From the NCBI GenBank assembly GCA_020724505.1, contig DYGV01000012.1, positions 1 through 47,429 of the forward strand: DNA of 47,429 nucleotides. Direction: 5' to 3'. Below, piece after piece: positions 8,230 to 47,429 of the stretch. Position numbers and translations under genes: made by a program. Below the pieces are notes generated by a model. The model saw nothing but the letters and a program-made list of their open reading frames with translations. It ran no database searches and was not told the origin of the DNA. This DNA comes from Anaerolinea thermophila (GTDB lineage Bacteria; Chloroflexota; Anaerolineae; Anaerolineales; UBA4823). Position 1 is the stretch's first letter, and each line of letters starts with the position of its first letter.

Positions 8230-8258
8230 TTGACGGAATGCGTGCAATATACTATACT
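8230..8258 (+). promoter_or_regulatory. Sigma70-like promoter candidate for the aldehyde dehydrogenase/CoA-transferase operon
   Basis: TTGACG (8230-8235), a 17-nt spacer, then TATACT (8253-8258), 119 nt upstream of the ATG at 8377. Confidence 0.35.
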
Positions 8259-8376
8259 ATATTTAGGCTTCGAGTCTTTGTCTTCCACTTCAGCGATCGC
8301 AGCCACATTTCTGTCATTTCACAGATCCATAGACTTTGGCGAAAACCGTCTTACCGAATTCCTCAAGGAGAAACCT

Positions 8377-9944
8377 ATGACCGAAAAATTCAAACTGACC
8401 TATGCCACCATGTTCAACCCCCCTGAAGAACTACACACCCAATTCGAAACGGCGTTAGCAAAGACTCGGGCGAAACTGGGCGCAGAATATGGGATGATCA
8501 TCAATGGCAAAGACGTCTTTGCAGACGAAAAGTTTGAAGACCGCACGCCGATCAACACCGATGTCGTTCTGGCAGTGATGCAGAAAGGCAATGAAAAACA
8601 CGCTCAGGCAGCGCTCGATGCCGCCCGCAAAGCCTTTCCGATCTGGAGCGGTATGGCATGGCAAGAACGCGTCCGATTGCTGAACAAGGCTGCGGATATA
8701 ATCGAGGAGCGCATCTTCGAACTGGGCGCTGCTATGGCGCTGGAGGTTGGGAAGAATAGAATGGAATCTTTGGGCGATGTCCAGGAAACCGCAGACCTGG
8801 TACGCTACGCCTGCTATCAGATGGAAAAGAATGACGGATATATTGTCGAAATGGGCAAAGACCCGCTGATCGGATACAACGCCACCAACATCTCGATGTT
8901 GCGACCTTATGGCTTGTCATTAGCCCATTCAACTTCCCGGCTGCGTTGACAGGCGGCCCGGTTGGCGCAGCATTGGTCACTGGCAACACCGTAGTGATGA
9001 AGCCCGCCACCGATACACCCTGGATTGTACGCTTGCTGGCGGAGTGCTTCCGCGACGCAGGTCTGCCAGAAGGGGTGGTTAATTTCGTTACCGGGCCCGG
9101 TCGCACGCTTGGACAGGCGCTCATCGAAAGCCCCGAGGTGGATGGCGTTACCTTTACGGGTTCCTATGATGTCGGCATGAAGATCTTCCGCGATTTCGCC
9201 GCCAGAAAATGGGTGCACCCCACCATTCTGGAGTTGGGCGGGAAGAACCCGGCCATTGTTTCACGCCATGCAGATCTTGAACGCGCGGCTACTGGCATTG
9301 TACGTTCTGCTTTCGGGCTTCAAGGGCAGAAATGTTCAGCATGCTCACGTGTCTATATTGAAGAACCGGTTTATGACGCGCTGGTCGAAAAGCTCGTCGC
9401 TCTGACCCAAAAACTCACCATTGGCGATCCAACCGACCGAGCCGTTTTCCTGGGGCCCGTGATTAACCAGAATTCTTATAATGATTACAAGCACTTCTGC
9501 GAAGAACTTTCGCAGGCTGGCGAAATCCTGACCGGCGGCAAGGTGTTGACCGACGGCGAATTCGCCAAGGGGTACTTCTGCACCCCCACTCTGGTGGCGA
9601 ATGTTCCGCTAACCCACCGATTATGGAAGTATGAGATGTTCCTGCCCATCACCACGATTGCTAAAGTGGAAAACCTGGAACAGGCAATGAGAGAAGCCAA
9701 TGACGTAGACTATGGGCTGACAGCAGGTTTCTATGGCAGCAAGGAAGAGGTCAAATGGTTCTTCCAGAACATCCAGGCTGGCGTAACATATGCCAACCGA
9801 CCGCAGGGTGCTACCACTGGCGCCTGGCCCGGCTTCCAACCCTTTGGCGGATGGAAAGGCTCTGGATCGAGCGGTAAGAACGCTGGCGGTCATTATTATT
9901 TGCCGCTGTACATGCACGAGCAGATTCAGACGCTGATTGATTGA
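8377..9944 (+). pseudogene. 1-pyrroline-5-carboxylate (glutamate-semialdehyde) dehydrogenase-type aldehyde dehydrogenase, reading frame broken near 8908-8913
   Basis: AAGGAG RBS, then ATG 8377 (MTEKFKLTYATMFNPPEEL...). Frame 1 reads ...NISMLRPYG and then hits a stop at 8947-8949. The sequence continues in another frame from 8910 as WLVISPFNFPAALTGGPVGAALVTGNTVVMKPA...ELGGKNP...FGLQGQKCSACSR (catalytic Glu and Cys motifs). Confidence 0.8.
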
Positions 9945-18082: not shown

Positions 18083-18103
18083 CCAGCGACGTGAGGTACC
18101 TTC

Positions 18104-21100
18104 ATGCTTAAAAGACTTATCCGTGTTATTGGGGGCGACCCCAACAAACGAGAAATAGACCGATTATCGGAGATTGTGGATCAGATCAACGCCCTTGAGC
18201 GCAAGTTTGAGGCGCTCAGCGACGCAGCGTTATCTGAAAAGACCAACGAATTTCGCGCTCGCCTGGCAGATGGCGAAACGCTCGATGATCTGTTGCCCGA
18301 AGCCTACGCTGCAGTGCGCGAAGCTAGCAAACGCACGCTAGGACTGCGCCACTTCGATGTTCAACTTATCGGCGGCATCGTACTCCATGAGGGCAAAATC
18401 GCCGAGATGCGCACCGGCGAAGGTAAAACGTTGGTGGCGACGTTGCCCTTATACCTTAACGCTCTGACCGGCCGAGGCGTACACCTGGTCACTGTGAACG
18501 ACTACCTGGCGCGCCGCGATGCCCGCTGGATGGCGCCAATTTACACCATGCTCGGTATGACTGTGGGCGTCTTACAAATCGCTGCTCGTACCGAGAATGG
18601 CAAAAAGGCTTTTATCGTGGATCTGAACCGTTCTTCGCCTCATGAGGATCAACATCAATTGCGCATGGTGCCGCGGCAGGAAGCCTATCTGGCAGACATC
18701 ACCTACGGAACCAACTCGGAATTTGGCTTTGATTACCTGCGCGACAACATGACCATGCGCCTGGATGAGCGAGTCCAACGTGGCCATTATTACGCCATAG
18801 TGGACGAAGTTGACAATGTGTTGATAGATGAGGCGCGAACCCCGCTCATCATCTCTGGCCCAGCACACGATGAAGCCGAGTGGTACATCCGCATGGCTCA
18901 GATCGTCAAAGCTTTGCGTCCAGAAGATTACGAAATCAACGAAAAAGATCGTACGGTCACGCTGACCGAGATCGGTGAAGGGCACGTCGAAGAATTACTC
19001 AATATGCCACTGCGCGATCCGGATCGCCCGGAGGATGTTACACTGGAGCAGGCCCGCATGTTGGGGTATCTGGAACAGGCGCTGCGAGCACAGTTCCTGT
19101 ATCGCCGCAATAAAGACTATCTGGTTCAGGCGGGCAAGGTCATCATCATTGATGAATTCACTGGTCGCATGATGCCCGGACGACGTTGGTCTGATGGTCT
19201 GCATCAGGCGGTGGAAGCAAAAGAGGGCGTGAAGGTGCAGAGCGAATCGGTCACCTACGCCACCATCACGATTCAGAACTATTTCCGCATGTACGAGAAA
19301 CTGGCTGGTATGTCCGGCACAGCCATCACCGAAGCGGAAGAGTTCGATAAAATCTATAAGCTAGGTGTCATCGCCATACCCACCAATCTTGAATATCTGG
19401 CGCAGAAACCCGAATCCGGGCTTAAGGTGGTCGAAGCGCGGGATGAATCCGGATACCGCTATCAATACTACGCACGAGTTGATGACCCGGAAGAGAAACC
19501 CGTCTTTTGGCGACGCAAAGATTATCCCGATGTCATCTACCGTACGCAAGAAGTCAAACTGCGCTCGATTTGCCGCGAAATCCTACGCTACCATGTGCTT
19601 GGACGGCCGTTGCTAGTCGGCACAACCTCCGTCGAATTATCTGAGCGATTATCCGCGCGATTGCGGGCTGAACCTTTGCGCCGTCTGGCTCAAACCATAT
19701 TATTGCGAGATGCATTCGTGCGCATCCATAACATCCAGGAAGACGGCCGTCAAATCTCAGAACTAAGCTTCCTATACGCCGCGCCGCTCGCCGATCTAGA
19801 CCAAGGCGCCATGCGCAAACTGGCGCGCGAGTTGGGTATCCCCTTCAACCCTGAAGACCCGATCAACCTGAAACGGTTGCTAGAGATATTCGAACTGCCG
19901 GAAACTTATCAAGATCGCTTGGCTGCGGTCTTACAGGCCGGCATCCCACACCAAGTGTTGAATGCCCGTAAGCATACCGAGGAAAGCCAAATCATCGCCG
20001 GCGCCGGCGCATTTGGTGCAGTGACCATTGCAACCAACATGGCTGGACGCGGCGTTGATATTAAGCTGGGCGGCGAATTAGCAGAAGAAATCCTTTCTGC
20101 GGTCAACCGCGTCTTGCACCGCGCTGGTTACTCAAACGCTTATGATATGACCCACCAGGAACGGCGCCAGGCATTGCTCGAACTGGGGCCAGATGGGTAT
20201 GGCATCTATGACGCCGAAATCCAATACTTCCTTCGCTATGTGGACGAGATGGAGCAAGTGAAAGCACTGGGCGGTCTACATGTGATCGGCTCAGAACGTC
20301 ATGAAGCGCGCCGCATTGACAATCAGTTGCGCGGACGCGCGGCACGTCAGGGCGATCCTGGTTCCTCCCGTTTCTACTTATCCATGGAAGACGACTTGAT
20401 GCGCCTCTTCGGCGGCCAACAGGCAGACGCGATGATGCAGCGGTTGAAAGTGGATGATGCTTTGCCGCTGGAGGTCGGGCTGGTGGGACGGTTGATCGAA
20501 CAATCGCAAACTCGCGTCGAAGGCGCAAATTTCGATATGCGCAAGCACCTGCTGGAATATGACGATGTGCTTAACACCCAGCGCGCTCGCATTTACGGCC
20601 AACGCGACCGCATCTTCACCAAAGACGACCTCACCGAGGATGTTACCAACATGCTTCGCGAGGAGCTGGCACGTCGCATCCCCGAAGCGCTCAACGACGA
20701 GGGTGGACCCTGGAAATTGCTGGCCTGGCTGGATCAGATACAGCCAACCATCCAACTCGGAGGTTTTTATTTCCCTTCGTTCGGCCTGCGCCTGCTGCTG
20801 AATAGCATTCTGGAAAGGTTGGGGGGACAGATTACTAAGGATTCGCTGCGAGAAATTTTGATCCAAATTTCGGAAGATGCGTTGCTGGCAGAAAAACAGC
20901 ACCACATGCAGGCGATTCTTGAAGCCCTGGAAGTTGGTGAAACTCGTCTCGAGTCACAAATTGAAGATCGTCTGGAAGCTATAGACGCTTTCTTCGAGAG
21001 CCTATTGCATGGCGACGAGACAGAAATTCGCCGCCCCGCGGATTTGCTGAACGAACTATCGAATCTGGCGCGAATGCCCATCAAACTACCTCCGGAGGAT

Positions 21101-22216
21101 TTGCGCAACATCCTGGAATCTCCCGAACCCGTGCGCAATGCAGTGCGCCAGCAGGTGGAACAAGCCTTACGAATTCAAGCCATTGGGCGTATCGTCGGCG
21201 CCGCCGAGCGACGTATAGATGAGGTGCTGGATCTGAACGTGACTCGCTTGGCAGAATACAGTTGGTTGGAAACGTCCAATCAAATCATGCAGGCCGTGGA
21301 AGATGCTCTGGATAAACGTCGTGAGCGCTATCTGGGAACTGGTGGACAGATCCTCAAGGATATTGACGCCATGCTGGAGAATCTACCGCCGACGATTCAT
21401 GAGCAGGTAATTCTGGCTATTCTCCTCCAACTGCCTCAAGGCGCACGCGCCCTCTTTGACAAACGCACCCATCGTCGCTACTTCCAACGCACTCAACGCA
21501 TGACCTTTGTATATTCAGCTGCCAAATACCTGGAGGGCTTAAAGCCAAACGAAGTCACGGAACAGGTGTTGGAACATTTAGAAGCCGCCCAAAGGGCAAT
21601 TCGCCTCGCCTGGGGACAAGGCGAATTTGCCCGTTTGAAAGACTTTTCTCTACTTGAACTGGAAAGCGAGGCACGAAGCAGCATACTTCGTTCCTTGAAT
21701 ATCGGTGAAGACGACGAACTGGCGCGCCAACCACTCAGCGTTTTTCCAGCGGAAGAGAAACAGATCGTGATTGATGAGCTAGGGCGACGGGTACTGACAG
21801 GAATCTATCGGCAGCTTCTCCTGAGTGTAATCACCGAATTATGGGTGGATTACCTTACTCAAATGGAGGCATTGCGCGTCTCCATTGGATTGGAAGCCTA
21901 TGCGCAGCGAGACCCCCTCGTACAGTACAAAAACCGCGCCGCAGAACTTTTCCAGAACTTGCAGCGTGACATCCGCCTGGGCGTCATTTCCCGCATGTTC
22001 ACCTACCGCCCCCGCGACCTTAGCCAAATGCAAGCCAACGTTGCCCGCCAAGAGACAACAGCCTCGGAAGACGAAGAAACACTCGTTACCGTTCAAGAAA
22101 CGGCTGCCGATGATGGGTTGGCTGCGGAATCTGTTATATCCAAAGACCAACTAGCCAGAAGTGATGCTCAGACATCCAATAACAGCGGAAAAAAGCGCAA
22201 GCGACGCCGGAAATAA
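18104..22216 (+). CDS. secA: Preprotein translocase ATPase SecA, unusually long (1370 aa)
   Basis: MLKRLIRVIGGDPNKREIDRL..., Walker A MRTGEGKT, DEVDNVLIDEARTPLIISG, TNMAGRGVDIKLGG and LRGRAARQGDPGSSRFYLS. The scaffold helix LEYDDVLNTQRARIY and the terminal WVDYLTQMEALRVSIGLEAYAQRDPLVQYK are separated by about 420 aa. Confidence 0.95.
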   Translation: MLKRLIRVIGGDPNKREIDRLSEIVDQINALERKFEALSDAALSEKTNEFRARLADGETLDDLLPEAYAAVREASKRTLGLRHFDVQLIGGIVLHEGKIAEMRTGEGKTLVATLPLYLNALTGRGVHLVTVNDYLARRDARWMAPIYTMLGMTVGVLQIAARTENGKKAFIVDLNRSSPHEDQHQLRMVPRQEAYLADITYGTNSEFGFDYLRDNMTMRLDERVQRGHYYAIVDEVDNVLIDEARTPLIISGPAHDEAEWYIRMAQIVKALRPEDYEINEKDRTVTLTEIGEGHVEELLNMPLRDPDRPEDVTLEQARMLGYLEQALRAQFLYRRNKDYLVQAGKVIIIDEFTGRMMPGRRWSDGLHQAVEAKEGVKVQSESVTYATITIQNYFRMYEKLAGMSGTAITEAEEFDKIYKLGVIAIPTNLEYLAQKPESGLKVVEARDESGYRYQYYARVDDPEEKPVFWRRKDYPDVIYRTQEVKLRSICREILRYHVLGRPLLVGTTSVELSERLSARLRAEPLRRLAQTILLRDAFVRIHNIQEDGRQISELSFLYAAPLADLDQGAMRKLARELGIPFNPEDPINLKRLLEIFELPETYQDRLAAVLQAGIPHQVLNARKHTEESQIIAGAGAFGAVTIATNMAGRGVDIKLGGELAEEILSAVNRVLHRAGYSNAYDMTHQERRQALLELGPDGYGIYDAEIQYFLRYVDEMEQVKALGGLHVIGSERHEARRIDNQLRGRAARQGDPGSSRFYLSMEDDLMRLFGGQQADAMMQRLKVDDALPLEVGLVGRLIEQSQTRVEGANFDMRKHLLEYDDVLNTQRARIYGQRDRIFTKDDLTEDVTNMLREELARRIPEALNDEGGPWKLLAWLDQIQPTIQLGGFYFPSFGLRLLLNSILERLGGQITKDSLREILIQISEDALLAEKQHHMQAILEALEVGETRLESQIEDRLEAIDAFFESLLHGDETEIRRPADLLNELSNLARMPIKLPPEDLRNILESPEPVRNAVRQQVEQALRIQAIGRIVGAAERRIDEVLDLNVTRLAEYSWLETSNQIMQAVEDALDKRRERYLGTGGQILKDIDAMLENLPPTIHEQVILAILLQLPQGARALFDKRTHRRYFQRTQRMTFVYSAAKYLEGLKPNEVTEQVLEHLEAAQRAIRLAWGQGEFARLKDFSLLELESEARSSILRSLNIGEDDELARQPLSVFPAEEKQIVIDELGRRVLTGIYRQLLLSVITELWVDYLTQMEALRVSIGLEAYAQRDPLVQYKNRAAELFQNLQRDIRLGVISRMFTYRPRDLSQMQANVARQETTASEDEETLVTVQETAADDGLAAESVISKDQLARSDAQTSNNSGKKRKRRRK

Positions 22217-22229
22217 AGCGAGGTCCATC

Positions 22230-23267
22230 GTGATCAACGAACGCCCACCCGATTATTATCGCTCGTTGCCGAAAATCGAACTTCATCGGCATCTGGAAGG
22301 CTCCCTCCGCATCAGAACTTTACTGGAGATTGGGCGCGCACACGGCGTTCCTATACCCGGCACCGGACGTTTACGCGAGTTGGTGCAAATTGGGGATGAA
22401 GACACGCTGACTTTCGAGAACTTTCTTTCAAAATTCCAAACTCTGCGCATGTTTTATCGCTCTCCAGAAGCGATTCACCGAATTACTCAGGAGACGATCG
22501 CCGATGCAGCCGAAGACAACATCCGCTACATGGAATTACGCTTCACCCCCATTGCGCTCAGCCGGGCTGAGAATTTCCCGCTGGCTGAAGTCATGGATTG
22601 GGTTATCGCAGCGGCTGCTGAAGCGCAAAAAAAATACCCCATAAAAGTCCGGCTAATTGTCAGTGTGAATCGTCATGAAAGCGTAGACCTGGCGTCGGAG
22701 ATAGTCAAACTGGCAATTGATCGGCGCGATCAAGGTATTGTCGGTATTGACCTGGCAGGGAATGAAGCCGAATTTTCGGGGATGGCGTTTCTAGGAGTGT
22801 TTAAAGAAGCCCGCCAGGCAGGAATGATGATCACGATACACGCTGGGGAGTGGGGTGGAGCCGAAAATGTGCTCAATGCCATTCTGTACCTGGGCGCCGA
22901 TCGGATCGGACATGGCGTCCGGGTAATGGAAGACCCAGAGGTGGTAGCTTTAGCGCGAGAAAGAGGCATACCTTTCGAAGTGTGTGTGACAAGCAACTAT
23001 CAATCCGGCGTGGTGCCATCGGTCGCAGTTCATCCACTGACGCGTATGATTCAAAATGGTTTACGAGTCACGTTGAATACCGATGATCCAAGCATCTCGA
23101 AGATTACGCTTTCAGATGAATACCGATTAGCAGAAAACGAGTTAGGCCTCGCCCCCGAAACTTTACGCAATTGTGTGATTACAGCAGCCCAGGCTGCTTT
23201 TCTTCCACAGGAAGAGCGCGATCAGCTCGTACAAAATATTCTCGAAAATTATCCATTGATAGCTTAA
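22230..23267 (+). CDS. add: Adenosine deaminase (copy 1)
   Basis: LPKIELHRHLEGSL, ITIHAGE and TLNTDDP motifs. The GTG at 22230 lies after the secA stop with AAGCGAGG upstream. The track ORF start at 22161 would overlap secA by 56 nt. Confidence 0.85.
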   Translation: MINERPPDYYRSLPKIELHRHLEGSLRIRTLLEIGRAHGVPIPGTGRLRELVQIGDEDTLTFENFLSKFQTLRMFYRSPEAIHRITQETIADAAEDNIRYMELRFTPIALSRAENFPLAEVMDWVIAAAAEAQKKYPIKVRLIVSVNRHESVDLASEIVKLAIDRRDQGIVGIDLAGNEAEFSGMAFLGVFKEARQAGMMITIHAGEWGGAENVLNAILYLGADRIGHGVRVMEDPEVVALARERGIPFEVCVTSNYQSGVVPSVAVHPLTRMIQNGLRVTLNTDDPSISKITLSDEYRLAENELGLAPETLRNCVITAAQAAFLPQEERDQLVQNILENYPLIA

Positions 23268-32726: not shown

Positions 32727-32828
32727 GCAAAGTCCGCTTGATTGCGGAATCATCCGCGTGTTTACCCATATGGGCTCATCAACTCCAGACCATGGGTAAA
32801 CCAAAGTGATACCGCCAAAGGAGGCGTG

Positions 32829-33380
32829 ATGCCCGCAACGGATCAGATCCGGATTTTAGAGGCTCAGCTTTACCAGGCGCGCCTGAACGTAGGACGCTTG
32901 CGTCGGGAGGTCTTCGAGCAAAAAGACCCTGCCAGCTCCCAGGCTCTGTTGGATGATCTGGCGACAGCCGAGGCCGACCTGGCAAAAAAAGAAGCCCAGC
33001 TCAGTCAGGCGATCCAGGCTAAACCCGGCAGCGGCCTCCTGGTAGAATTGGGAAAGCGCTGGTATTCCGGCACCCTACGTTCGGATACAACCGGACTGGA
33101 AGTAAAAGTGCACTTGCGCATGGCACAGGTTGCCACTTCAGTATATCACCTGCTTGATCCACAGAAGAATCCCCTCGTCACCTGCACCATTCAGAATTTC
33201 TCTGATAAAGTGCGCCGTTTGCGCATCACCTCCTTCATCGAGGATTATTCAGCTAAGGCCATTAAAACAGTCGAAATTGACCCCGGTCCCGACCCGGTGG
33301 AGGTGCATCAGCAGCCGACTTTGTTTCCACGGCTCATACGAGACATCCACGAGCTGACCCGCGCCACGCTGAATGTTTAG
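32829..33380 (+). CDS. Coiled-coil plus beta-rich N-terminal segment of a larger reading frame; ends at an in-frame TAG
   Basis: Strong RBS AAAGGAGG (32817-32824), then ATG 32829. MPATDQIRILEAQLYQARLNVGRLRREVFEQ...AEADLAKKEAQLSQAIQ is a predicted coiled coil. TAG at 33378-33380. Confidence 0.6.
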   Translation: MPATDQIRILEAQLYQARLNVGRLRREVFEQKDPASSQALLDDLATAEADLAKKEAQLSQAIQAKPGSGLLVELGKRWYSGTLRSDTTGLEVKVHLRMAQVATSVYHLLDPQKNPLVTCTIQNFSDKVRRLRITSFIEDYSAKAIKTVEIDPGPDPVEVHQQPTLFPRLIRDIHELTRATLNV

Positions 33381-33497
33381 GTTGAGGAACTCGGCGAGAT
33401 AGATGAACGCATCGAGTCGCACACCACTCATCCGATCTGGCTGCTGGCACGCACTACTGCTCCCCTAGCCGTACGGGACCCCAAGAGCGGCGAATGG

Positions 33498-34082
33498 ATG
33501 GATCTAAGCCGATATTTAGGCGCCTTCGTCACACCCAACGCCCCGGCGTTGATGGCGTTTCTGCGTCAAGCAGCGGCTCTTCACCCGCAAAAGCGCCTGG
33601 TGGGCTATCAAGGCGACCTATCGCAGGTGGAGCCGCAGGTGCGGGCGATCTTCGAAGCGCTCAAGCGCCAAGCTGAGATCACCTATGTTAATTCGGTGAT
33701 CGCTTTCAGCCCCGATCAAGGCGCGGCCAACCAGCGCGTCCGCTTGCCGCGCGAATGCCTGGAACATCATCAAGCCAACTGCATTGATGGAACGGTGCTT
33801 GTCGCCAGCCTGTTGGAAGCCATCTCCCTCAACCCAGCTATTGTATTAATTCCCGGCCACGCTTTATTGGGTTGGCAGACGTGGAACGACGAAACTGCGC
33901 AATGGCGCTACCTGGAAACCACAATGATTGGCTGGAGCACATTTGAGGAAGCGCAGGCAAGCGGCGAGGTGATGGCCGATCGCTATCGTAAATTAGCCAC
34001 CGATCATCAAGACAACTCCCTCTTCCGTTCATGGCCGTTGCGCACCCTGCGCGCTGAATACGGCATCACACCGTTGGAATGA
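33498..34082 (+). CDS. Papain/transglutaminase-like Cys-His domain segment, in the same frame as 32829..33380 and probably the C-terminal part of one gene
   Basis: Both ORFs are in the same frame, and the 117 nt between them (33381-33497) contain no stop. That stretch reads as ordinary protein ([39 protein letters not shown]). Candidate catalytic contexts are [22 protein letters not shown] (Cys) and [13 protein letters not shown] (His). Confidence 0.6.
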
Positions 34083-34114: not shown

Positions 34115-37100
34115 ATGGCAAATCCCCCGCCCCATTTTATTGTATTCGTACCCGGATATATGGGCAGCCGATTGCGCAATCGGCGAACGGGAGAATTGGT
34201 TTGGCTGGATATTCCTGGCCTGCTAAGAAACCCGTTCGATATTCCCGGCGCGCTAGAGCGCATGTTCGACCAGATGCGTTATCCAAACGATGATCTTATC
34301 CCTGACGGCATTGTGGATGAGGTTCTTTTCTTGCCCCCCTTGTTCAAACAAGAACAATACGGGCGTATGCTGGAAGCCCTGGCACGTATGGGCTACAACA
34401 CCACAGGTAAGCCGGCCACTGGCGAACTGGCTGCTTATACCTTCGCTTACGATTGGCGGCAAGATAATCGCATCTCTGCCCGTCAATTGGGGCAATTCAT
34501 AGAAAGCCTGGAAGAAAAACACCCTGGAGCTAAAGCGATTCTCATCGGTCACAGCAACGGCGGAATTGTCTCACGTTGGTACATTGAAAAAGAGGGCGGA
34601 AGTAGCCACGTATCGCGCCTCTTTTTGATGGGTTCCCCTTGGGACGGCGCTCCGAAGGCATTTCAGGTACTGCAAGATGGGTTGGAAGTGTTCTTGATGG
34701 GTATCTTCAACCGCTATGATAACCGTCTTCAAGACAAAATAAAATCCGCCGTGCTTAGTTTTCCATCGTTTTATCAACTTATTCCGGCTACAAACCCATT
34801 TCTCCACGATGCCAACGGCAATACGATTGATCCATTCACCGATCTCAGCTGGCTGCAAAACGAACGCCAACGCCAGATGTTGCTAGACGGCAAGCAATTC
34901 AATCAACAGTTAGGGACTACCCTCAGCGTGGAGACGCTGTGTTTCTTTGGAGTAAAAACCTGGACCACCACTGGCGGGTTGGTGCACCTCGGCCCGTCTG
35001 GGAGTTGGTCAAAGTTCGATTGGGAGCGCACCGAAGAGGGCGATGGCACAGTGCCCACGCGCAGCGCAGTACATCCTCAAGCCAGCCAGAAACTGCCTTT
35101 TGTTGCCTCGCATGGCGATATTTATGTTATCCCTCCTGTGCTCGAAAAAATGGAATTCGAGCTGTTGACGAAATACCGCTTGGGTGTGTTGGCGGAAGCA
35201 GTAACCCCGAATTTGACCATCCATTTTGAACCCGATCGTGACGTGTATCAGCCTGGCGAGGAGATTCATGTTTGGGCGACTGTGTCGCGACGCGATAGCA
35301 ACGATCCCATTGGCAATGCTCTCATAGACGTTCGATTGGAGTTGCGACAACCGCTGCCCAATTTTTCTCATGCCCCAGCCGATACCCTGCCCGCCATTCG
35401 GCTGCACGAGAGCGAACAAGAGGATGGTCGTTACGAAGGCGTGATGCAGTCGCCTCGCTCTTCTGGCTATTACCGATTGGTCGCTACGGTGAACGCGCCC
35501 GGGGAGGCATCGATTCCCCTGGAAGAACTCATCCTGATCGAAGGCGCGCCGGATTGGTCTTCTAGCGCCGGCGGAAGCGCGCCAGGCGCTTACCCGCCCA
35601 GCGGCTCTGGCAGCCAGCCGCCTCCACCCATCACCGGCGGTCCGATTTTCCGCTCCTGGGACGAACCCCCGCAAACGACCCCTTCTGATCAAGAATTTGG
35701 AGCATTTGCATCTGCCAGGCGTGCCATCCACGTTGAAATCACAGAGGGCAATGTTCACCAACCAATCCCCTTTGGCGAAGAGTTCACCCTAACCTTATAC
35801 GTGGATGAAAAAAACTCTGCCTTTAGCGTCCCTTTTCGCGAAGCTGGTCTGTTCTCGGATGAGCAAAGCCTGGTTCGTCTGATGGTGCAAGTGTCCAGCT
35901 CGGATTTCATCGTCCACACCCGTCAGCCGCAAGAGCTGCGCGTACCACGGCGCGGCCGCTCGCGCAATAAAGCCCGTTTCGATCTTGAACCGTTACATAG
36001 CGGTTCGAGTCGCGCAGCAGCTTTGATTTACAAAGACAATAACTTTGTCCAAGGGCTTGACCTGGAATTCAACGTGGCGGGAGACGAAGCAACCTCCAAT
36101 GCGCTAGTCAATAGACCAGCGATAAACCATCTTGAAGCGCTAGGGCGCCCGGTTGAAAATCTGGGGCTACTCAAGCCGCGTGATGTTCTGTTATTTATCA
36201 AAAATCGCGGCGAAGAGTTCGAAATGACATTAGTAGATCAAACCGTCAGCGAGGCTCGCTTACCCATCAGTTCGTTCCAGCTCAGCGGAATCATCACCCG
36301 GGCGCGCCAGGCCTTGTTAGATGTCGTATATCTGGCGAAAAGCCCGGCTGGTATCAGCGTTTTACGCGGACGCCCTCCTTCCGTAGACACCTTGCTGGCC
36401 TACCAGGCGGAGGTTGATATTCCAGAAGATGTGGCGCAACAAGCCCTGAAAATGTTGGCAGAAGCCGGCTTTTTGCTATTTCAGGACCTCTTCTATGGGC
36501 CTTCCGCCGGGTCAGATATACAGGCAATGGGCGAGCGGTTGCGCGGGCTGGCGAATAAATCGGCGCTCAAGTTACAAATCGTCTCTCAACATTTCTTCCT
36601 GCCATGGGGATTGCTCTACCTTGGGGAGGACTTGAGCCACATCCAGCCTGACCACTTTCTCGGATTACACCACATAGTGGAACACATACCTCTCCAGGCC
36701 AGCCCGCCGGTCTTTACCCCGGATATTCCCAGCCAGCCACGTTTGGCTGTCAGCGTCAATGTAGATTCATCCATAGACCAAGCCATGGGGCGCGATTTTG
36801 TCGCTCGTCAACTGAACTATTGGAAGCCGCTTCAACAGATCGGCGCAGCTGAGATAGCCATCCGTCAAACCGATCAGGAATGGTTAGAGGCTATGCGACT
36901 ACCAGCTGTAGACCAAATAATGTACTTCTATGGGCACGCTCTAACGCCGGCTATGGACGATCCGGCAAGCGCAGACAACGCTTCGCTAAGCTTTACCGAT
37001 AATAAAAAAGTTACGCTGCGCCAATTGCGCTTAAATGCAGCCGAAAAGCATCGCTTTCCTGGCGAGCCTTTAGTTTTCATCAATGCGTGCGAATCGGCGG

Positions 37101-37387
37101 AACTCTCTCCTTTATTCTATAGCGGATTCATGCCCTACTTTACCACGAAAGGCGCCAGAGGTATGATCGGAACAGAGTGCGAGGTGCCTGCGGTATTTGC
37201 CGCCGAATGGGCGCCTCGGTTTTTTGACCGCTTCCTCTACCAGGAAAAATCTATTGGTGAAATCTTTTTAGAATTACGCCGCGAGTTTTATTATCGGCAC
37301 AACAATATTCTGGGGCTTTTGTACGCCTTGTATTGCGATGGGGATACCCGAATTTACCCGGCGTTAGCCAGAACGGCGCCAGTTTAA
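34115..37387 (+). CDS. Multidomain protein: N-terminal LCAT/PGAP1-like alpha/beta-hydrolase lipase, Ig-like middle region, P/G/S linker, C-terminal CHAT (caspase-fold) protease domain
   Basis: RBS AAAGGAGAA lies before ATG 34115, 32 nt after the upstream stop. Lipase motifs: FVPGYMGS, ILIGHSNGG (Ser147, nt 34553-34555), GDGTVP and ASHGDIY. CHAT dyad contexts: MYFYGHA (His941, nt 36935-36937) and LVFINACES (Cys992, nt 37088-37090). Confidence 0.8.
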   Translation: MANPPPHFIVFVPGYMGSRLRNRRTGELVWLDIPGLLRNPFDIPGALERMFDQMRYPNDDLIPDGIVDEVLFLPPLFKQEQYGRMLEALARMGYNTTGKPATGELAAYTFAYDWRQDNRISARQLGQFIESLEEKHPGAKAILIGHSNGGIVSRWYIEKEGGSSHVSRLFLMGSPWDGAPKAFQVLQDGLEVFLMGIFNRYDNRLQDKIKSAVLSFPSFYQLIPATNPFLHDANGNTIDPFTDLSWLQNERQRQMLLDGKQFNQQLGTTLSVETLCFFGVKTWTTTGGLVHLGPSGSWSKFDWERTEEGDGTVPTRSAVHPQASQKLPFVASHGDIYVIPPVLEKMEFELLTKYRLGVLAEAVTPNLTIHFEPDRDVYQPGEEIHVWATVSRRDSNDPIGNALIDVRLELRQPLPNFSHAPADTLPAIRLHESEQEDGRYEGVMQSPRSSGYYRLVATVNAPGEASIPLEELILIEGAPDWSSSAGGSAPGAYPPSGSGSQPPPPITGGPIFRSWDEPPQTTPSDQEFGAFASARRAIHVEITEGNVHQPIPFGEEFTLTLYVDEKNSAFSVPFREAGLFSDEQSLVRLMVQVSSSDFIVHTRQPQELRVPRRGRSRNKARFDLEPLHSGSSRAAALIYKDNNFVQGLDLEFNVAGDEATSNALVNRPAINHLEALGRPVENLGLLKPRDVLLFIKNRGEEFEMTLVDQTVSEARLPISSFQLSGIITRARQALLDVVYLAKSPAGISVLRGRPPSVDTLLAYQAEVDIPEDVAQQALKMLAEAGFLLFQDLFYGPSAGSDIQAMGERLRGLANKSALKLQIVSQHFFLPWGLLYLGEDLSHIQPDHFLGLHHIVEHIPLQASPPVFTPDIPSQPRLAVSVNVDSSIDQAMGRDFVARQLNYWKPLQQIGAAEIAIRQTDQEWLEAMRLPAVDQIMYFYGHALTPAMDDPASADNASLSFTDNKKVTLRQLRLNAAEKHRFPGEPLVFINACESAELSPLFYSGFMPYFTTKGARGMIGTECEVPAVFAAEWAPRFFDRFLYQEKSIGEIFLELRREFYYRHNNILGLLYALYCDGDTRIYPALARTAPV

Positions 37388-37394
37388 GCTCCAG

Positions 37395-38408
37395 CTACCC
37401 CCCACTGCCGCGGCTTTGCACCTGCCGCCAGATGCGATCTTTCTGCTCAGCATCCAAGAAGGCTGCTTCCAATGCGTTCATTTGCATCTGGCGGATTTGC
37501 GAGGGGGTAAAACCCGCTGCAGGCGCAGCGACTTCATATTCATAACGCAAATCAATACCACTGATCCTCGGATCATCCGTGTTAAGCGTAAAGAGAATAT
37601 TGCGCTCTAAGAATATTTTTCCCGGATGGCTTCGGTAATCCGGAGTGGTCATGGTTTGTACATTACTGGTTAGGTTGCCTTCAACCGCAATCCGCTTGGC
37701 AGCCATCATATCTAACAAGTGCGCATCTTGGATTGCAGCGACGCCATGTCCGATGCGAACCGCCCCCAGTTTTTGGATCGCAGTCCAGATGCTATCCGGG
37801 CCGGCGCTTTCGCCCGCATGAACGGTAACGCGCCAGCCAGCGTCGCGGGCTCTTTTGAAATGCTCGATAAATAGCTCCGCCGGAACATTCGCCTCGTCGC
37901 CGGCAAGATCTAATGCAACGATGCGCTCGCGCTGGGTCAGCAACGCGTTCAACTCCTTCCAACCGATCTCCGCTCCGTAGGTGCGACTAATAATACCAAT
38001 CAGATTTACTTCCATGCCGAAATCCCGTTTGCCCGCATCGATCCCGTCGCAAACTGCTTCTACCACACCTGCTGGATCCAAACCATGTCCTTCGGCCATG
38101 AACCACGGACTGAAACGCAGTTCTACATAATCCAGTCCCTCTTTCTTCGCGTCTTCAACATTCTCATACGCTATTCGCCAACAAGCCTGATAATCCACCA
38201 ACGCCTGGATCATCCAATGAAATTTGCTGATAAACGCCATAACGCCGGGTTGAGGTTCTGTCACTTGAACAAATGGGCGCAAGCCCTCCACATCCCAAGC
38301 AGGAAGTTGCAGTCCATGCTTGCGGCCAATATCCAAAATGGTCTCCAGGCGCACGTTTCCATCCAGATGGCGGTGTAAATCAATGAGGGGCAGTCGAGGA
38401 TCAATCAT
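37395..38408 (-). CDS. add: Adenosine deaminase (copy 2)
   Basis: MIDPRLPLIDLHRHLDGNVRLETILDIGRKHGL, VTVHAGE and TLNTDDP motifs; 337 aa. Its stop is 7 nt from the stop of the convergent CHAT gene. Confidence 0.85.
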   Translation of the reverse strand: MIDPRLPLIDLHRHLDGNVRLETILDIGRKHGLQLPAWDVEGLRPFVQVTEPQPGVMAFISKFHWMIQALVDYQACWRIAYENVEDAKKEGLDYVELRFSPWFMAEGHGLDPAGVVEAVCDGIDAGKRDFGMEVNLIGIISRTYGAEIGWKELNALLTQRERIVALDLAGDEANVPAELFIEHFKRARDAGWRVTVHAGESAGPDSIWTAIQKLGAVRIGHGVAAIQDAHLLDMMAAKRIAVEGNLTSNVQTMTTPDYRSHPGKIFLERNILFTLNTDDPRISGIDLRYEYEVAAPAAGFTPSQIRQMQMNALEAAFLDAEQKDRIWRQVQSRGSGG

Positions 38409-45076: not shown

Positions 45077-45617
45077 ATGGTTATGAACAGCGACGAAAGC
45101 GAAGTTCAACACACCCAGCATGCCTTTCTGGTGGCTTGGGGCTGGGTTGGCGAACACATCGGCCTGATCTGGCGACTCCTGGCAGTGCCTTTGAAACAGA
45201 AACGCTATCATCATACGCCCCAGGGCAAAGTCCTGGAATTCCTGGTGGTCATTCTGGGTGGGCTGAAGTATTTGCAAGAAATCAGCCTGTCGTCCATCCC
45301 CTGGATAAGGACCCGGTGGTGGCCCAAGCCTGGGGACAGGAGAGCTGGGCGGACTACAGCGGGGTGAGCCGCACCCTGAGCGGGCTAGTGGGGAGGAAGC
45401 TCGTCAAATCGGGCAGGTGTTGGAGCAGATCACTCATCCCTACATCGCAGCCGAGTTGCAGTTGCTGCGCTCACAGGGGAAACGCATCCGTTATGATGGC
45501 GATCTGACCGGCATTCCGGTCTCCATTACCAGCCGGAGTTACCCCAATGCAGCCTACGGACAGATGGACGATGAAATTCGGCTGGGATTTCAGGCTGCCC
45601 TGGTCAGCCTGCTGACC
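45077..45617 (+). pseudogene. Degraded, 3'-truncated DDE transposase fragment (IS4-family-like); at least two frameshifts
   Basis: The homologous reading hops through three frames. The segments are MNSDESEVQHTQHAFLVAWGWVGEHIG...GKVLEFLVVILGGLKYLQEISLS, then VHPLDKDPVVAQAWGQESWADYSGVSRTLSG, then EEARQIGQVLEQITHPYIAAELQLLRSQGKRIRYDGDLTGIP...GFQAALVSL. The AWGQxxWADYSGVSRTL block matches my memory of IS4-type transposase N-terminal regions. The fragment ends exactly at the first CRISPR repeat. Confidence 0.6.
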
Positions 45618-47429
45618 GGTCCACCCCCACGCGTGTGGGGAAAACTTGATGTGCAAGTCAGATACGATGATGATGTGCGGTCCACCCCCACGCGTGTGGG
45701 GAAAACTCCTCCTAAACAATAGATGTAATCAACCCATTTGGTCCACCCCCACGCGTGTGGGGAAAACGGTACGTGTGCGGTGATGCGCGATGAAAGTACA
45801 GGTCCACCCCCACGCGTGTGGGGAAAACGTTCCCATGTTGGTAGTGGGAAGCGCCCCACAAGGTCCACCCCCACGCGTGTGGGGAAAACGTTAACCATGC
45901 GTCGCTGCCGCTACCATATCCCGGTCCACCCCCACGCGTGTGGGGAAAACTGATCGTTCCATTCCCCGCCCTGTCGCCGACCGGTCCACCCCCACGCGTG
46001 TGGGGAAAACCACATTTCCGCTAAGTTGCTTGACGATTAGCGCGGTCCACCCCCACGCGTGTGGGGAAAACGCGACAATGATATCAGGAATGGTTGCTGC
46101 AAAAGGTCCACCCCCACGCGTGTGGGGAAAACAGAAACAACTAAAGTCGCTGGTCGTCGGGGTAAGGTCCACCCCCACGCGTGTGGGGAAAACGTTTGCC
46201 AGCGCTAACACGTTGGCCAGGTCACGGCTCCACCCCCACGCGTGTGGGGAAAACGTGGAAATGCGGTCGTTATTGCGGTGGATGCCAGGTCCACCCCCAC
46301 GCGTGTGGGGAAAACCACTCAATCGTCAAAATTCCTGGCTCACCAGGCGGTCCACCCCCACGCGTGTGGGGAAAACATGATTATCCAGATGCGCAGATTG
46401 TTTATGGCCGGTCCACCCCCACGCGTGTGGGGAAAACAATAGATGTGTTGACAAGCTCCATTGGTGAATAGGTCCACCCCCACGCGTGTGGGGAAAACAT
46501 ATGCTGGCAATGCCATTGAATCATGGTCATAGGTCCACCCCCACGCGTGTGGGGAAAACTCTACACTATTCTTCAATTCTAGTACCCCCTCAGGTCCACC
46601 CCCACGCGTGTGGGGAAAACGCCGCACATTTGGTGCAATGAAATGGGCTGATAGGTCCACCCCCACGCGTGTGGGGAAAACGTTATCGTGCAAGGCATAC
46701 CGGCGGGGCGATCCGGTCCACCCCCACGCGTGTGGGGAAAACTTCCACCTTCCGCATATCCACCAGCAAATTTACGGTCCACCCCCACGCGTGTGGGGAA
46801 AACTCCATCACCTGGCCGCCTGAAACATTCGATGATGGTCCACCCCCACGCGTGTGGGGAAAACCCGAAAATGACCAGACCGATCCGATCGTCTCACCGT
46901 CCACCCCCACGCGTGTGGGGAAAACCCGCGGCTATCAGAACGCCCATAATCCCCATAAGGTCCACCCCCACGCGTGTGGGGAAAACGATAATATTTCCGC
47001 CTGCACCTGATCCTGTTCCGGTCCACCCCCACGCGTGTGGGGAAAACACCTATTACGCCAACCGCTGCTGCTAATGGATAGGTCCACCCCCACGCGTGTG
47101 GGGAAAACGCAATGAGCGATGTTGCTATTCCAGAACCCTAGGTCCACCCCCACGCGTGTGGGGAAAACGAATTTGCTGCATTGGCACGTGTCCACGGTAA
47201 AGGTCCACCCCCACGCGTGTGGGGAAAACTACCAGCGGGGCGTTATGGCTTGTTCTATGAGGTCCACCCCCACGCGTGTGGGGAAAACAGCCTGATTGCG
47301 CTCTTCTCTGGTCATCTGTTCGGTCCACCCCCACGCGTGTGGGGAAAACGAACATTGCGCACAAGGAATGTAAAACTCACCCGGTCCACCCCCACGCGTG
47401 TGGGGAAAACACGATGCAACCATCATCAA
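45618..47429 (-). CRISPR. CRISPR array with 30 repeats, type I-E-like, continuing beyond the window end
   Basis: The 28-nt repeat is GGTCCACCCCCACGCGTGTGGGGAAAAC on the plus strand and GTTTTCCCCACACGCGTGGGGGTGGACC on the minus strand. It recurs at 61-nt periodicity (26 intervals of 61, two of 60, one of 59) from 45618 to 47410, followed by a partial spacer. The internal palindrome is CCCCAC/GTGGGG. The minus-strand form starts GTTTTCCCC and ends GGGGGTGGACC, like I-E repeats, so the strand call is an inference. Confidence 0.95.

Follow-up and report, generated by a model that had tools for sequence, protein, structure and literature searches.

In the VMAP ternary conflict systems, caspase domains are always accompanied by a neighboring α/β-hydrolase gene (Kaur et al., 2020, eLife, PMC7159879). 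Evans et al. (2025 preprint, PMC12642450) describe how, in Lysobacter capsici, LcCaspase cleaves the LcHydrolase zymogen at two R|G sites to give fragments that kill E. coli; they also report a pattern of 'constant effector, variable protease class' for metallo-β-lactamase (MBL) effectors. Here we analyze a locus in a 47,429-nucleotide stretch of Anaerolinea thermophila DNA (GenBank assembly GCA_020724505.1, contig DYGV01000012.1), referred to below in its entirety as the window. In this locus a lipase of the LCAT type and a protease of the CHAT type are encoded by a single gene (34115..37387, + strand), which follows a gene for a transglutaminase-like protein, here termed the partner (32829..34082, + strand). 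We regard it as rather probable that the two genes form a cytoplasmic conflict or programmed-cell-death module of a filamentous bacterium of the Anaerolineae (Chloroflexota), and that the fusion is an LCAT-type, single-chain variant of the caspase plus α/β-hydrolase theme.

The resemblance to the caspase plus α/β-hydrolase module lies in the genetic coupling of a caspase-superfamily cysteine protease to a lipase-like α/β-hydrolase, in the occurrence in 'multicellular' lineages (Actinobacteria, Chloroflexi, Planctomycetes, Myxococcota), and in the association of the unfused relatives with STAND NTPases and other conflict-system parts. By analogy, the logic of LcCaspase and LcHydrolase, in which a latent effector is licensed by proteolysis, would be applicable to the fusion. 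Unlike that pair, however, the two activities would here reside in one polypeptide with the lipase N-terminal, and in place of the ~33-kDa LcHydrolase there is a ~355-amino acid (aa) LCAT/LPLA2-type domain followed by a β-sandwich (DUF7379, possibly related, matches one of 31 family members). Nor is a sensor fused to the protease, and no conserved R|G pair was found. The third, constant, transglutaminase-like gene is not described in the available parts of PMC7159879 and PMC12642450. The initial annotation of this DNA, made from the sequence alone, knew of no characterized protein that joins a lipase to a CHAT protease. A search of the available literature library likewise found no paper combining an LCAT with a CHAT domain. 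The combination nevertheless has more precedent than that annotation implied: the pairing of caspase with α/β-hydrolase was already known from the same two sources.

The fusion gene starts with an ATG located 32 nt 3' of the partner stop codon, has its own Shine-Dalgarno sequence (AAGGAGA), and encodes 1090 aa. The open reading frame (ORF), Pfam, a structural model and Foldseek agree that this is one polypeptide containing a lipase and a CHAT domain, as initially annotated. Residues 1–355 (34115..35179) are an LCAT/LPLA2-like α/β-hydrolase (phospholipase/acyltransferase), as judged from Pfam LCAT, Foldseek and the catalytic triad. Next come a β-sandwich of the Ig/MG-like kind (residues 360–478, 35192..35548), for which there are modeled strands at 361–475 and a weak MG2 match, and a disordered linker rich in P, G, S, A, E and T (residues 479–533, 35549..35713) with predicted local distance difference test (pLDDT) values of 24–34. 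Both had been proposed from the sequence and both appear in the AlphaFold2 model. Beyond them the model has two further β-sandwiches (residues 537–716, 35723..36262) that had escaped notice; they make up one unit with the CHAT domain and are probably DUF7363-like, going by the model, the conservation, and a DUF7363 match in 2 of 31 members. The C-terminal part (residues 720–1085, 36272..37369) is a CHAT caspase-fold cysteine protease by Pfam CHAT, by its Foldseek match to separase, and by its catalytic dyad. All these segments are on the + strand.

The lipase nucleophile is S147 (AGC, 34553-34555) in ILIGHSNGG, and the triad is completed by D310 (35042-35044) in EGDGTVP and H333 (35111-35113) in ASHGDIY; the CHAT dyad consists of H941 (36935-36937) in YFYGHA and C992 (37088-37090) in FINACES. 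These five residues and their codons are where the initial annotation had placed them, and they are invariant in 31 aligned homologs, down to 43% identity. The CHAT pair is kept as well in an alignment with a CHAT protein of Sorangium cellulosum (Myxococcota). Profile searches, structure prediction and Foldseek, which had been recommended as checks on the two enzymes, gave an LCAT score above the gathering score, a CHAT score just below it, and matching folds for both. Pfam LCAT (PF02450) matches the window protein with 49.1 bits (gathering score 21; E=6.6e-13) and, when family members are scanned singly, all 31 of them (best E=2.7e-17); Pfam CHAT is matched by 30 of the 31 at E≤1e-3 (best E=6.5e-16).

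The AlphaFold2 model of the fusion, built with 31 sequences, has a mean pLDDT of 81.6, with the lipase domain mostly at 80–96. In it the CHAT residues, His before Cys and about 50 positions apart, follow strands, H941 after strand 935–940 and C992 after strand 986–992. Foldseek searches of the PDB returned, for the lipase domain, LPLA2/LCAT structures (4x97, 4x90, 4x92, 5txf, 4x96; E 1e-15 to 8e-12, target template-modeling [TM] score 0.58–0.66) and the type VI secretion system (T6SS) phospholipase Tle4 in the Tle4-Tli4 complex (4r1d, E=1.5e-11). For the CHAT domain, moderate matches were to the separase protease domain (5fby, E=1.6e-8; 5fc3, E=6.6e-8; target TM 0.40). In a PDB sequence search S147 aligned with the catalytic Ser165 of LPLA2, the same column holding Ala in the S165A mutant entry 4x92, and the EGDGTV of the fusion aligned with DGDGTV in the Asp327 region of LPLA2; H333 would correspond to LPLA2 His359 from order and motif. 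Because the catalytic residues are invariant, the LPLA2 alignment holds and the folds match, both enzymes of the fusion look active. The likeness to LPLA2/LCAT and Tle4 comprises the α/β-hydrolase fold, an AHSxGG-type elbow, a Ser-Asp-His triad and the GDGTV motif, with TM 0.62–0.66 to LPLA2. Unlike LPLA2 and LCAT, the domain is bacterial, cytoplasmic and fused to a protease, lacks a signal peptide or glycosylation context, and is only 18–21% identical to them. Judging from their sequences, both the fusion and the partner lack a signal peptide, or any hydrophobic stretch, at the N-terminus.

The linker, where the two fused modules meet and where cleavage might take place, is the least conserved part of the protein: mean identity to the window protein among the 31 members is 62% in the lipase, 47% in the first β-sandwich, 28% in the linker, 42% in the middle β-sandwiches and 53% in CHAT, and linker length in the family ranges from 58 to 162 aa. 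About 13 of the 31 linkers contain a loose GG..R..DEP motif, which in the window protein reads GGPIFRSWDEPP. Directly after the linker stands a near-invariant R536, and the middle β-sandwiches include a conserved basic strand, LRVPRxGxSRNKARFD.

The partner gene (417 codons) had been listed as two ORFs, 32742-33380 and 33498-34082. Frame analysis, together with an intact gene in locus L006, shows that these are one gene split by an in-frame TAG at codon 184 (33378..33380), so this item of the initial annotation has to be revised. Contig DAOUMK010000060.1 (L006; assembly GCA_034411655.1) is 99.97% identical to the window, with 8 single-nucleotide polymorphisms (SNPs) in 23,273 nt, and carries TTG (Leu) at codon 184, which leaves the 417-aa gene intact. 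Within 27 bp (33374-33400) the window differs from L006 by 4 SNPs, of which two are synonymous, one is missense and one is the nonsense change TTG to TAG. This cluster looks like strain variation and not random error, and it suggests strain-level recombination or a mixed-population consensus.

The partner protein is modeled with high confidence (pLDDT 90.6, predicted TM score 0.89) as a helical hairpin (residues 4–63), a β-sandwich (70–225) and an α/β domain (227–417), the last predicted to be a transglutaminase-like Cys-His domain. Among 53 sequences, C318 (33780-33782) and H344 (33858-33860) are invariant and E363 (33915-33917) is present in at least 90%. The Cys-His-Glu spacing is 26 and 19 residues; spacing of that kind resembles PNGase and transglutaminases. 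Pfam and PDB sequence searches with the partner gave no match. The family has at least 1172 homologs (protein clusters), none with a Pfam domain or an informative name, from at least six phyla (Chloroflexota, Actinomycetota, Myxococcota, Planctomycetota, Acidobacteriota, Desulfobacterota), and a pattern scan found no partner in IMG/VR. Mean column identity among the 53 best-scoring full-length homologs, which come from several phyla, is 54%.

Is the partner a constant companion of the fusion or a chance neighbor? The initial annotation had proposed to look for co-occurrence, and this was found: of 10 distinct fusion loci, 9 have the partner adjoining the fusion gene, at times in reversed order. 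In the five loci with called genes it lies 26–122 nt upstream on the same strand, and relatives as distant as 47% identity have an ortholog of 386–419 aa immediately upstream of the fusion. In distant relatives the surrounding synteny is gone and the two-gene unit of partner and fusion alone persists.

The partner also occurs far from any fusion gene. We surveyed one genome per species and took the best 80 of 120 confirmed partner loci. Those listed come from Chloroflexota (Caldilineaceae, Anaerolineales, Chloroflexia), Myxococcota (Sorangium, Anaeromyxobacter), Planctomycetota, Acidobacteriota, actinomycetes (Nonomuraea, Actinoplanes, Kribbella, Streptomyces, Gaiella) and others. The 80 loci were scanned with purpose-built hidden Markov models (HMMs) for CHAT, the lipase, an astacin-like protein and a muramidase, and neighbors within 3 kb were counted for those 54 loci that have 3 kb or more of sequence on each side. 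Pfam bore out the assignments of astacin, muramidase and LCAT. A CHAT gene lies within 3 kb of the partner in 28 of the 54 loci and an astacin-like metalloprotease in 23, of which 13 also have a ~1000-aa SH3 plus N-acetylmuramidase protein. Neither protease is found within that distance in 9 loci. The partner is therefore beside a CHAT or an astacin-like protease, two unrelated folds, in 45/54 loci (83%). Often a lytic or NAD-depleting effector (lipase, SH3-muramidase or SIR2) adjoins it as well.

Individual loci illustrate the range of neighbors. In Desulfonema limicola a protein with NNH2, nSTAND3 and FGE-sulfatase domains, a CHAT protein, a β-propeller and an HSP70 precede the partner in this order, near RadC, SNF2 and SSB; in Actinoplanes the order is TPR-S, CHAT, DUF7363-CHAT, then partner. 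A metagenome-assembled genome (MAG) of Pyrinomonadaceae has SIR2, CHAT, partner and astacin genes near an integrase and a Rep gene, and in a Thermoanaerobaculia MAG the partner is followed by a CHAT-STAND NTPase fusion. A recurrent three-gene cassette consists of the astacin-like metalloprotease (~270 aa), the partner, and the ~1000-aa SH3 plus N-acetylmuramidase protein, whose ~500-aa N-terminus is unannotated; it is found at loci L018, L022, L023, L025, L028, L030, L031, L033-L037, L039, L040, L043 and L048 (Caldilineaceae and other Chloroflexota). The cassette looks like a form of the same system that lacks CHAT and whose effector is cell-wall-lytic. At one of these loci (L048:12230-15739, + strand, Caldilineaceae), two genes downstream of the partner gene, there is a 1170-aa protein with an N-terminal Peptidase_C14 caspase and a C-terminal DUF7379/LCAT-like hydrolase, an independent caspase-hydrolase fusion in the reverse order.

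The core of the partner recurs in an anti-phage protein. Residues 144–357 match the NCBIfam model 'anti-phage protein ProA' (NF058533) with 91.4 bits (E=2.7e-26). The model has a profile length of 1903 and a cut-off of 1500 bits, and the partner covers only profile positions 43–243; on this evidence it is not a ProA, and the homology is best taken as domain-level only. With tblastn, 67 plasmids were found to encode large DUF4011/DUF3320 proteins that begin with the partner-like domain. One of these, on Acinetobacter soli plasmid pGFJ1 (L174, record positions 18093-23249), is a bona fide ProA of 1718 aa (1771.6 bits) whose helicase part matches Hhe (NF042953) with 762 bits, below the cut-off of that model. 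Its N-terminus is 32% identical to the partner and keeps the Cys (A-x-C-[IL]-D) and His (G-H-[AS]) motifs, and the gene sits among HipA, HigB and HicAB toxin-antitoxin genes. The partner thus resembles ProA in having a domain homologous to the ProA N-terminal domain, with Cys and His motifs kept. Unlike ProA, a protein of ~1700–1900 aa with an Hhe-like DUF4011/DUF3320 superfamily 1 helicase, it is a stand-alone protein of 417 aa without helicase or nuclease, has an N-terminal helical hairpin, and is coupled to a protease. The source paper for the name 'ProA' was not found in a literature search.

A homolog search with the full-length fusion recovered 44 relatives, about 35 of them full length at 42–89% identity; the named full-length relatives are called 'CHAT domain-containing protein' and come from Anaerolineales/Anaerolineae MAGs. 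The fusion architecture is limited to ~40 protein clusters of Anaerolineae/Chloroflexota. Its modules are far more widespread. The lipase-domain profile has at least 1790 relatives, the closest being stand-alone ~485-aa proteins of lipase plus β-sandwich that are 50–65% identical to residues 1–478; the first β-sandwich accompanies the lipase in these stand-alone relatives, which are matched by the ig1 HMM. In Singulisphaera sp. Ch08 a gene for a 441-aa CHAT protein comes 34 nt after a stand-alone lipase gene, and STAND NTPases and a transposase flank the pair. Kribbella, Streptomyces and an actinomycete MAG each have a gene for an LCAT-like lipase convergent to a gene pair in which CHAT precedes the partner. 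All three lipases have the triad and match Pfam LCAT (E 1e-13 to 1e-15); the window protein aligns with that of Kribbella at E=3e-21 and 28% identity, and the Anaerolineae and actinomycete lipases are 26–29% identical. CHAT and lipase are adjacent separate genes in locus L092 and lie within one locus in L055, L057 and L062. The stand-alone CHAT protein of L092 has a sub-threshold match to NCBIfam 'cell division protein HetF' (E=1.2e-16). Four distant relatives of the lipase are on viral contigs, and no CHAT or partner was found near them; with the partner also missing from IMG/VR in the pattern scan, a phage origin was rejected.

The C-terminal module (residues 535–1090) was searched against 1.84 billion representative proteins and had 321 relatives at E≤1e-30. 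Most are of 670–800 aa, with a short N-terminal helical domain and an acidic, proline-rich linker ahead of the module; of the top 150 about 22 are at least 1050 aa long, consistent with the lipase-fused architecture. Other N-termini include a TIR domain with an additional CHAT domain, and cupredoxin-like domains. Because helical, TIR-CHAT and cupredoxin-like N-termini are found on the same module, this CHAT clade is a platform with exchangeable N-termini, on which the LCAT fusion is a lineage-restricted solution. Sequence comparison indicates that the fusion arose from two genes, since stand-alone lipases and CHAT neighbors exist and the junction is disordered and hypervariable; we count this origin among the computational results.

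How does the locus compare with other protease systems? With the CRISPR-linked CHAT proteins (the TPR-CHAT of type III-E Craspase and the SAVED-CHAT cascade of type III-B) it has in common the CHAT fold, the dyad of His and Cys, and the proposal that a partner protein is cut at a specific site. It differs from them in that the fusion has neither TPR nor SAVED and that no gRAMP/Cas7-11, Csx29/30/31 or cas gene is nearby. With the EACC1-caspase and gasdermin-protease systems it shares a layout of two genes, a constant small one beside that of a caspase-like protease with variable fused domains; unlike EACC1 (~115 aa, with a single transmembrane segment) or gasdermin, however, the partner is a 417-aa soluble protein of putative transglutaminase fold. 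The initial annotation had mentioned Craspase and gasdermin-activating proteases, and no link of this locus to either was found.

From the computed features, namely the domain identities, the invariant catalytic residues, the gene-fusion origin, the conserved pair, the effector swapping and the domain shared with an anti-phage protein, we infer enzymatic activity, cleavage, a trigger, lethality and substrate or regulator roles along the following lines. In the uncleaved fusion the lipase would be latent. A trigger such as infection or damage, perhaps sensed by the partner, would activate CHAT, which would then cleave in cis or in trans; candidate sites are the linker or loops of the lipase that resemble a lid, and/or the partner's N-terminal helical hairpin. 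The phospholipase so freed or unmasked would hydrolyze membrane phospholipids, and the cell would be killed or lysed. The protease-gated, membrane-attacking lipase put forward in the initial annotation accordingly fits the comparative data and the precedent, with activity, cleavage and toxicity as its predicted elements. The modules, when unfused, adjoin STAND NTPases, SIR2, transposases and integrases. The partner may be a sensor, a regulator or a second protease-licensed effector: it resembles protease-licensed effectors because it is associated with two unrelated protease classes, and it looks rather like a sensing or regulatory protein because the same domain is N-terminal in ProA, which has no protease. 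That a broken partner stands beside an intact fusion argues weakly against an essential antitoxin role for it.

A number of observations weigh against a conflict or cell-death module. As to the proteins themselves, Pfam CHAT (PF12770) gives the window protein 20.6 bits (E=3.4e-4), just under the gathering score of 24, and the isolated C-terminus 23.1 bits. The partner has weak Foldseek matches (E 3e-3 to 1.6e-2), to LapG (4u65_E), PNGase (2f4m), Rad4 (2qsf), TG2/TG3/FXIII and BDI_1141. A strictly conserved cleavage motif was not found in the 31 linkers, where there is only the loose motif noted above, and no conserved R-G pair is evident in the lipase alignment of 31 sequences. The premature stop in the window partner means that the module may be defective in this strain. 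STAND NTPase, TPR and WD40 sensor domains are absent from the fusion and the adjacent cytosolic genes, although sensors do adjoin unfused relatives of the modules, and PADLOC models match neither fusion nor partner. As to genomic setting, the locus lies in the core chromosome, among genes for DnaE, SecA, PFK, an HtrA-like protease, YgjP, two adenosine deaminases and cytochrome oxidase, in DNA of uniform G+C with no defense island or mobile element. The syntenic run of Fpg, MeaB, B12-binding, Trypsin_2, YgjP, PD40, Pmp3, PD40, partner, fusion and adenosine deaminase is kept in relatives at 55–100% identity (YgjP being absent in L001). A closely related stand-alone lipase, at locus L093, has neither CHAT nor partner within 8 kb, and among 80 sampled distant metagenomic lipase loci a CHAT gene is nearby in only 7 and a partner-like gene in only 3. 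These last three have no detectable protease, and two of them are short contigs. The initial annotation had looked to a variable or defense-island setting and had named a conserved housekeeping one as telling against its hypothesis. What was found is in part the latter, in that the locus is core-chromosomal and syntenic and its neighborhood is not a variable one; however, in distant relatives the unit holds together in different neighborhoods, and STAND NTPases, SIR2, transposases and integrases lie beside unfused relatives.

Such a setting, with its housekeeping flanks and its synteny at 55–100% identity, is what would be expected if the locus had a developmental or housekeeping role in lipid remodeling, cell division or filament fragmentation of a multicellular filamentous bacterium, CHAT acting as in HetF and the LCAT-like domain remodeling or transferring acyl chains. 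HetF functions in the division of cyanobacterial cells and in the development of heterocysts. Enzymes of the LCAT family have acyltransferase besides phospholipase activity, a point that favors this explanation, as do the sub-threshold HetF match of the L092 CHAT protein (E=1.2e-16), the vertical distribution of the fusion family within Anaerolineae, and the lack of PADLOC matches to fusion or partner. We nevertheless think it unlikely, given that unfused modules occur with STAND NTPases, SIR2, TIR, transposases and integrases, that the partner core domain is common to an anti-phage protein family, that neighbors of the partner include muramidases and SIR2, typical death effectors, and that the two-gene unit is retained in distant relatives though its surroundings change. 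The roles could also be exchanged, the partner being a zymogen effector licensed when an adjacent protease removes its N-terminal hairpin and the lipase an accessory, either a second effector or a membrane-targeting module, that is not cleaved by CHAT. Factor XIII, TG3 and microbial pro-transglutaminase provide zymogen precedents. The partner has a protease of one or the other of two unrelated folds beside it in 45/54 loci, a Cys-His-Glu spacing (26 and 19 residues) like that of PNGase and transglutaminases, and, weakly in Foldseek, the β-sandwich plus core layout of animal transglutaminases over ~380 aligned columns. It is also far more conserved (54% mean column identity across phyla) than the CHAT and lipase modules (26–29% between the lipases of Anaerolineae and actinomycetes), and the arrangement mirrors the pattern for MBL effectors in PMC12642450. 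Set against this, no cleavage site was identified in the partner, Foldseek support for the transglutaminase fold is weak, the three distant lipase loci with a partner-like gene (two of them short contigs) show no protease, and ProA carries the same domain N-terminal to a helicase-nuclease without any protease, which points to a sensing or regulatory role; such an exchange of roles seems to us improbable.

The Foldseek match to the T6SS effector Tle4 (4r1d, E=1.5e-11) and the tight two-gene arrangement raise the question of an exported interbacterial toxin, with a Tle-like phospholipase delivered to competitors and the upstream gene encoding its immunity protein. This is very improbable: the fusion and window contain no signal peptide, secretion-system genes or toxin-trafficking domain; the partner is exceptionally conserved and has an invariant, enzyme-like Cys-His pair, unlike fast-evolving immunity proteins; it occurs with many non-lipase neighbors; and its gene is broken here although the adjoining lipase gene is intact, a state that would not be tolerated if it were an essential immunity gene. 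The same broken frame, with its in-frame TAG at codon 184 and an intact counterpart in a 99.97%-identical contig, might alternatively mean that the module is decaying in this genome, the partner being a pseudogene and the fusion gene a relic. We hold that to be quite unlikely, because the LCAT-CHAT ORF is intact with all catalytic residues present, the window fusion has the consensus residue (G at nt 36788) at a position where L006 deviates, and the TAG falls within 4 SNPs in 27 bp of a metagenome-type assembly and may be a minor-strain variant or a consensus artifact; loss in one strain would in any case be uninformative on family function. We retain the reading of the pair as a conflict or programmed-cell-death module. 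A bolder proposal, which we offer tentatively and think possible rather than probable, is that the ~415-aa partner marks an undescribed, widespread protease-coupled conflict system in which it would be the constant sensor or executioner, combined with interchangeable proteases (CHAT or astacin-like) and lytic effectors (LCAT-type lipase, SH3-muramidase, SIR2); the fusion would then be a self-contained 'caspase-lipase' membrane executioner after autoproteolytic release. If true, this would be a new class of death effector parallel to caspase-gasdermin.

Other genes of the window were considered as components. The upstream PD40/WD40 proteins were rejected as sensors: one is a lipoprotein (LIAGC), the other has a membrane anchor and a T/P-rich linker, and both are absent from distant loci. 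The downstream adenosine deaminase was rejected as a third component, being syntenic only in close relatives and linked by descent alone. Two adenosine deaminase paralogs lie within 15 kb of each other (22161-23267, + strand; 37395-38408, − strand), and the one beside the fusion matches the ADA part of the PADLOC CARF-ADA model, without a CARF domain. The only PADLOC matches were to this ADA domain, to SIR2 in L011, and, weakly, of SAVED_CHAT to the L092 CHAT protein. In L001, a 55%-identical Anaerolinea relative, the stretch from the fusion to the adenosine deaminase has two inserted genes, one for Peptidase_C11 (clostripain-like, caspase-fold; L001:13316-14551, − strand) and one for a histidine phosphatase. 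Promoter and terminator scans gave sites no more numerous than in shuffled sequence.

A CRISPR array (45618-47411, + strand, running to the window end) holds the 29-nt repeat GGTCCACCCCCACGCGTGTGGGGAAAAC 30 times, with spacers of 32 nt and a period of 61; no copies are expected by chance. A link to the fusion was rejected: the array is 8.2 kb away, respiratory and redox genes lie between, and the ORFs of the window include no cas genes. ORFs listed at 45590-47074 are within the array and are probably artifacts. SecA (18104-22216, + strand) is unusually long at 1370 aa, with insertions of ~115 and ~110 aa relative to Pfam SecA_DEAD and P-loop_SecA. An aldehyde dehydrogenase is in two overlapping ORFs (8230-8949 and 8946-9944, + strand), the second matching Aldedh positions 146–457 only; a frameshift, a pseudogene or an error of assembly could account for the split.

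The locus is new in its covalent fusion, in the LCAT type of its lipase and in having a third component; the domain pairing and the underlying logic are known. Protease-licensed death effectors (gasdermins, EACC1, Pepco, MBL nucleases and α/β-hydrolases) are coming into view as a dominant logic in the immunity of bacteria, one that has parallels in the caspase pathways of animals. The pairing of a caspase-like protease with a phospholipase in a single chain would be a compact model for the gating of a lipase by proteolysis, for the cleavage site and for the lipid substrate. The fusion also serves as a 'Rosetta stone' that links LCAT-type lipases, this CHAT clade and the transglutaminase-like partner in one functional unit. 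Less expected was the partner, whose family is highly conserved, has no Pfam model, is tied to two protease folds, and is homologous to the N-terminus of an anti-phage helicase. These features therefore point to a module, as yet undescribed, that bacterial conflict systems of multicellular lineages have in common.

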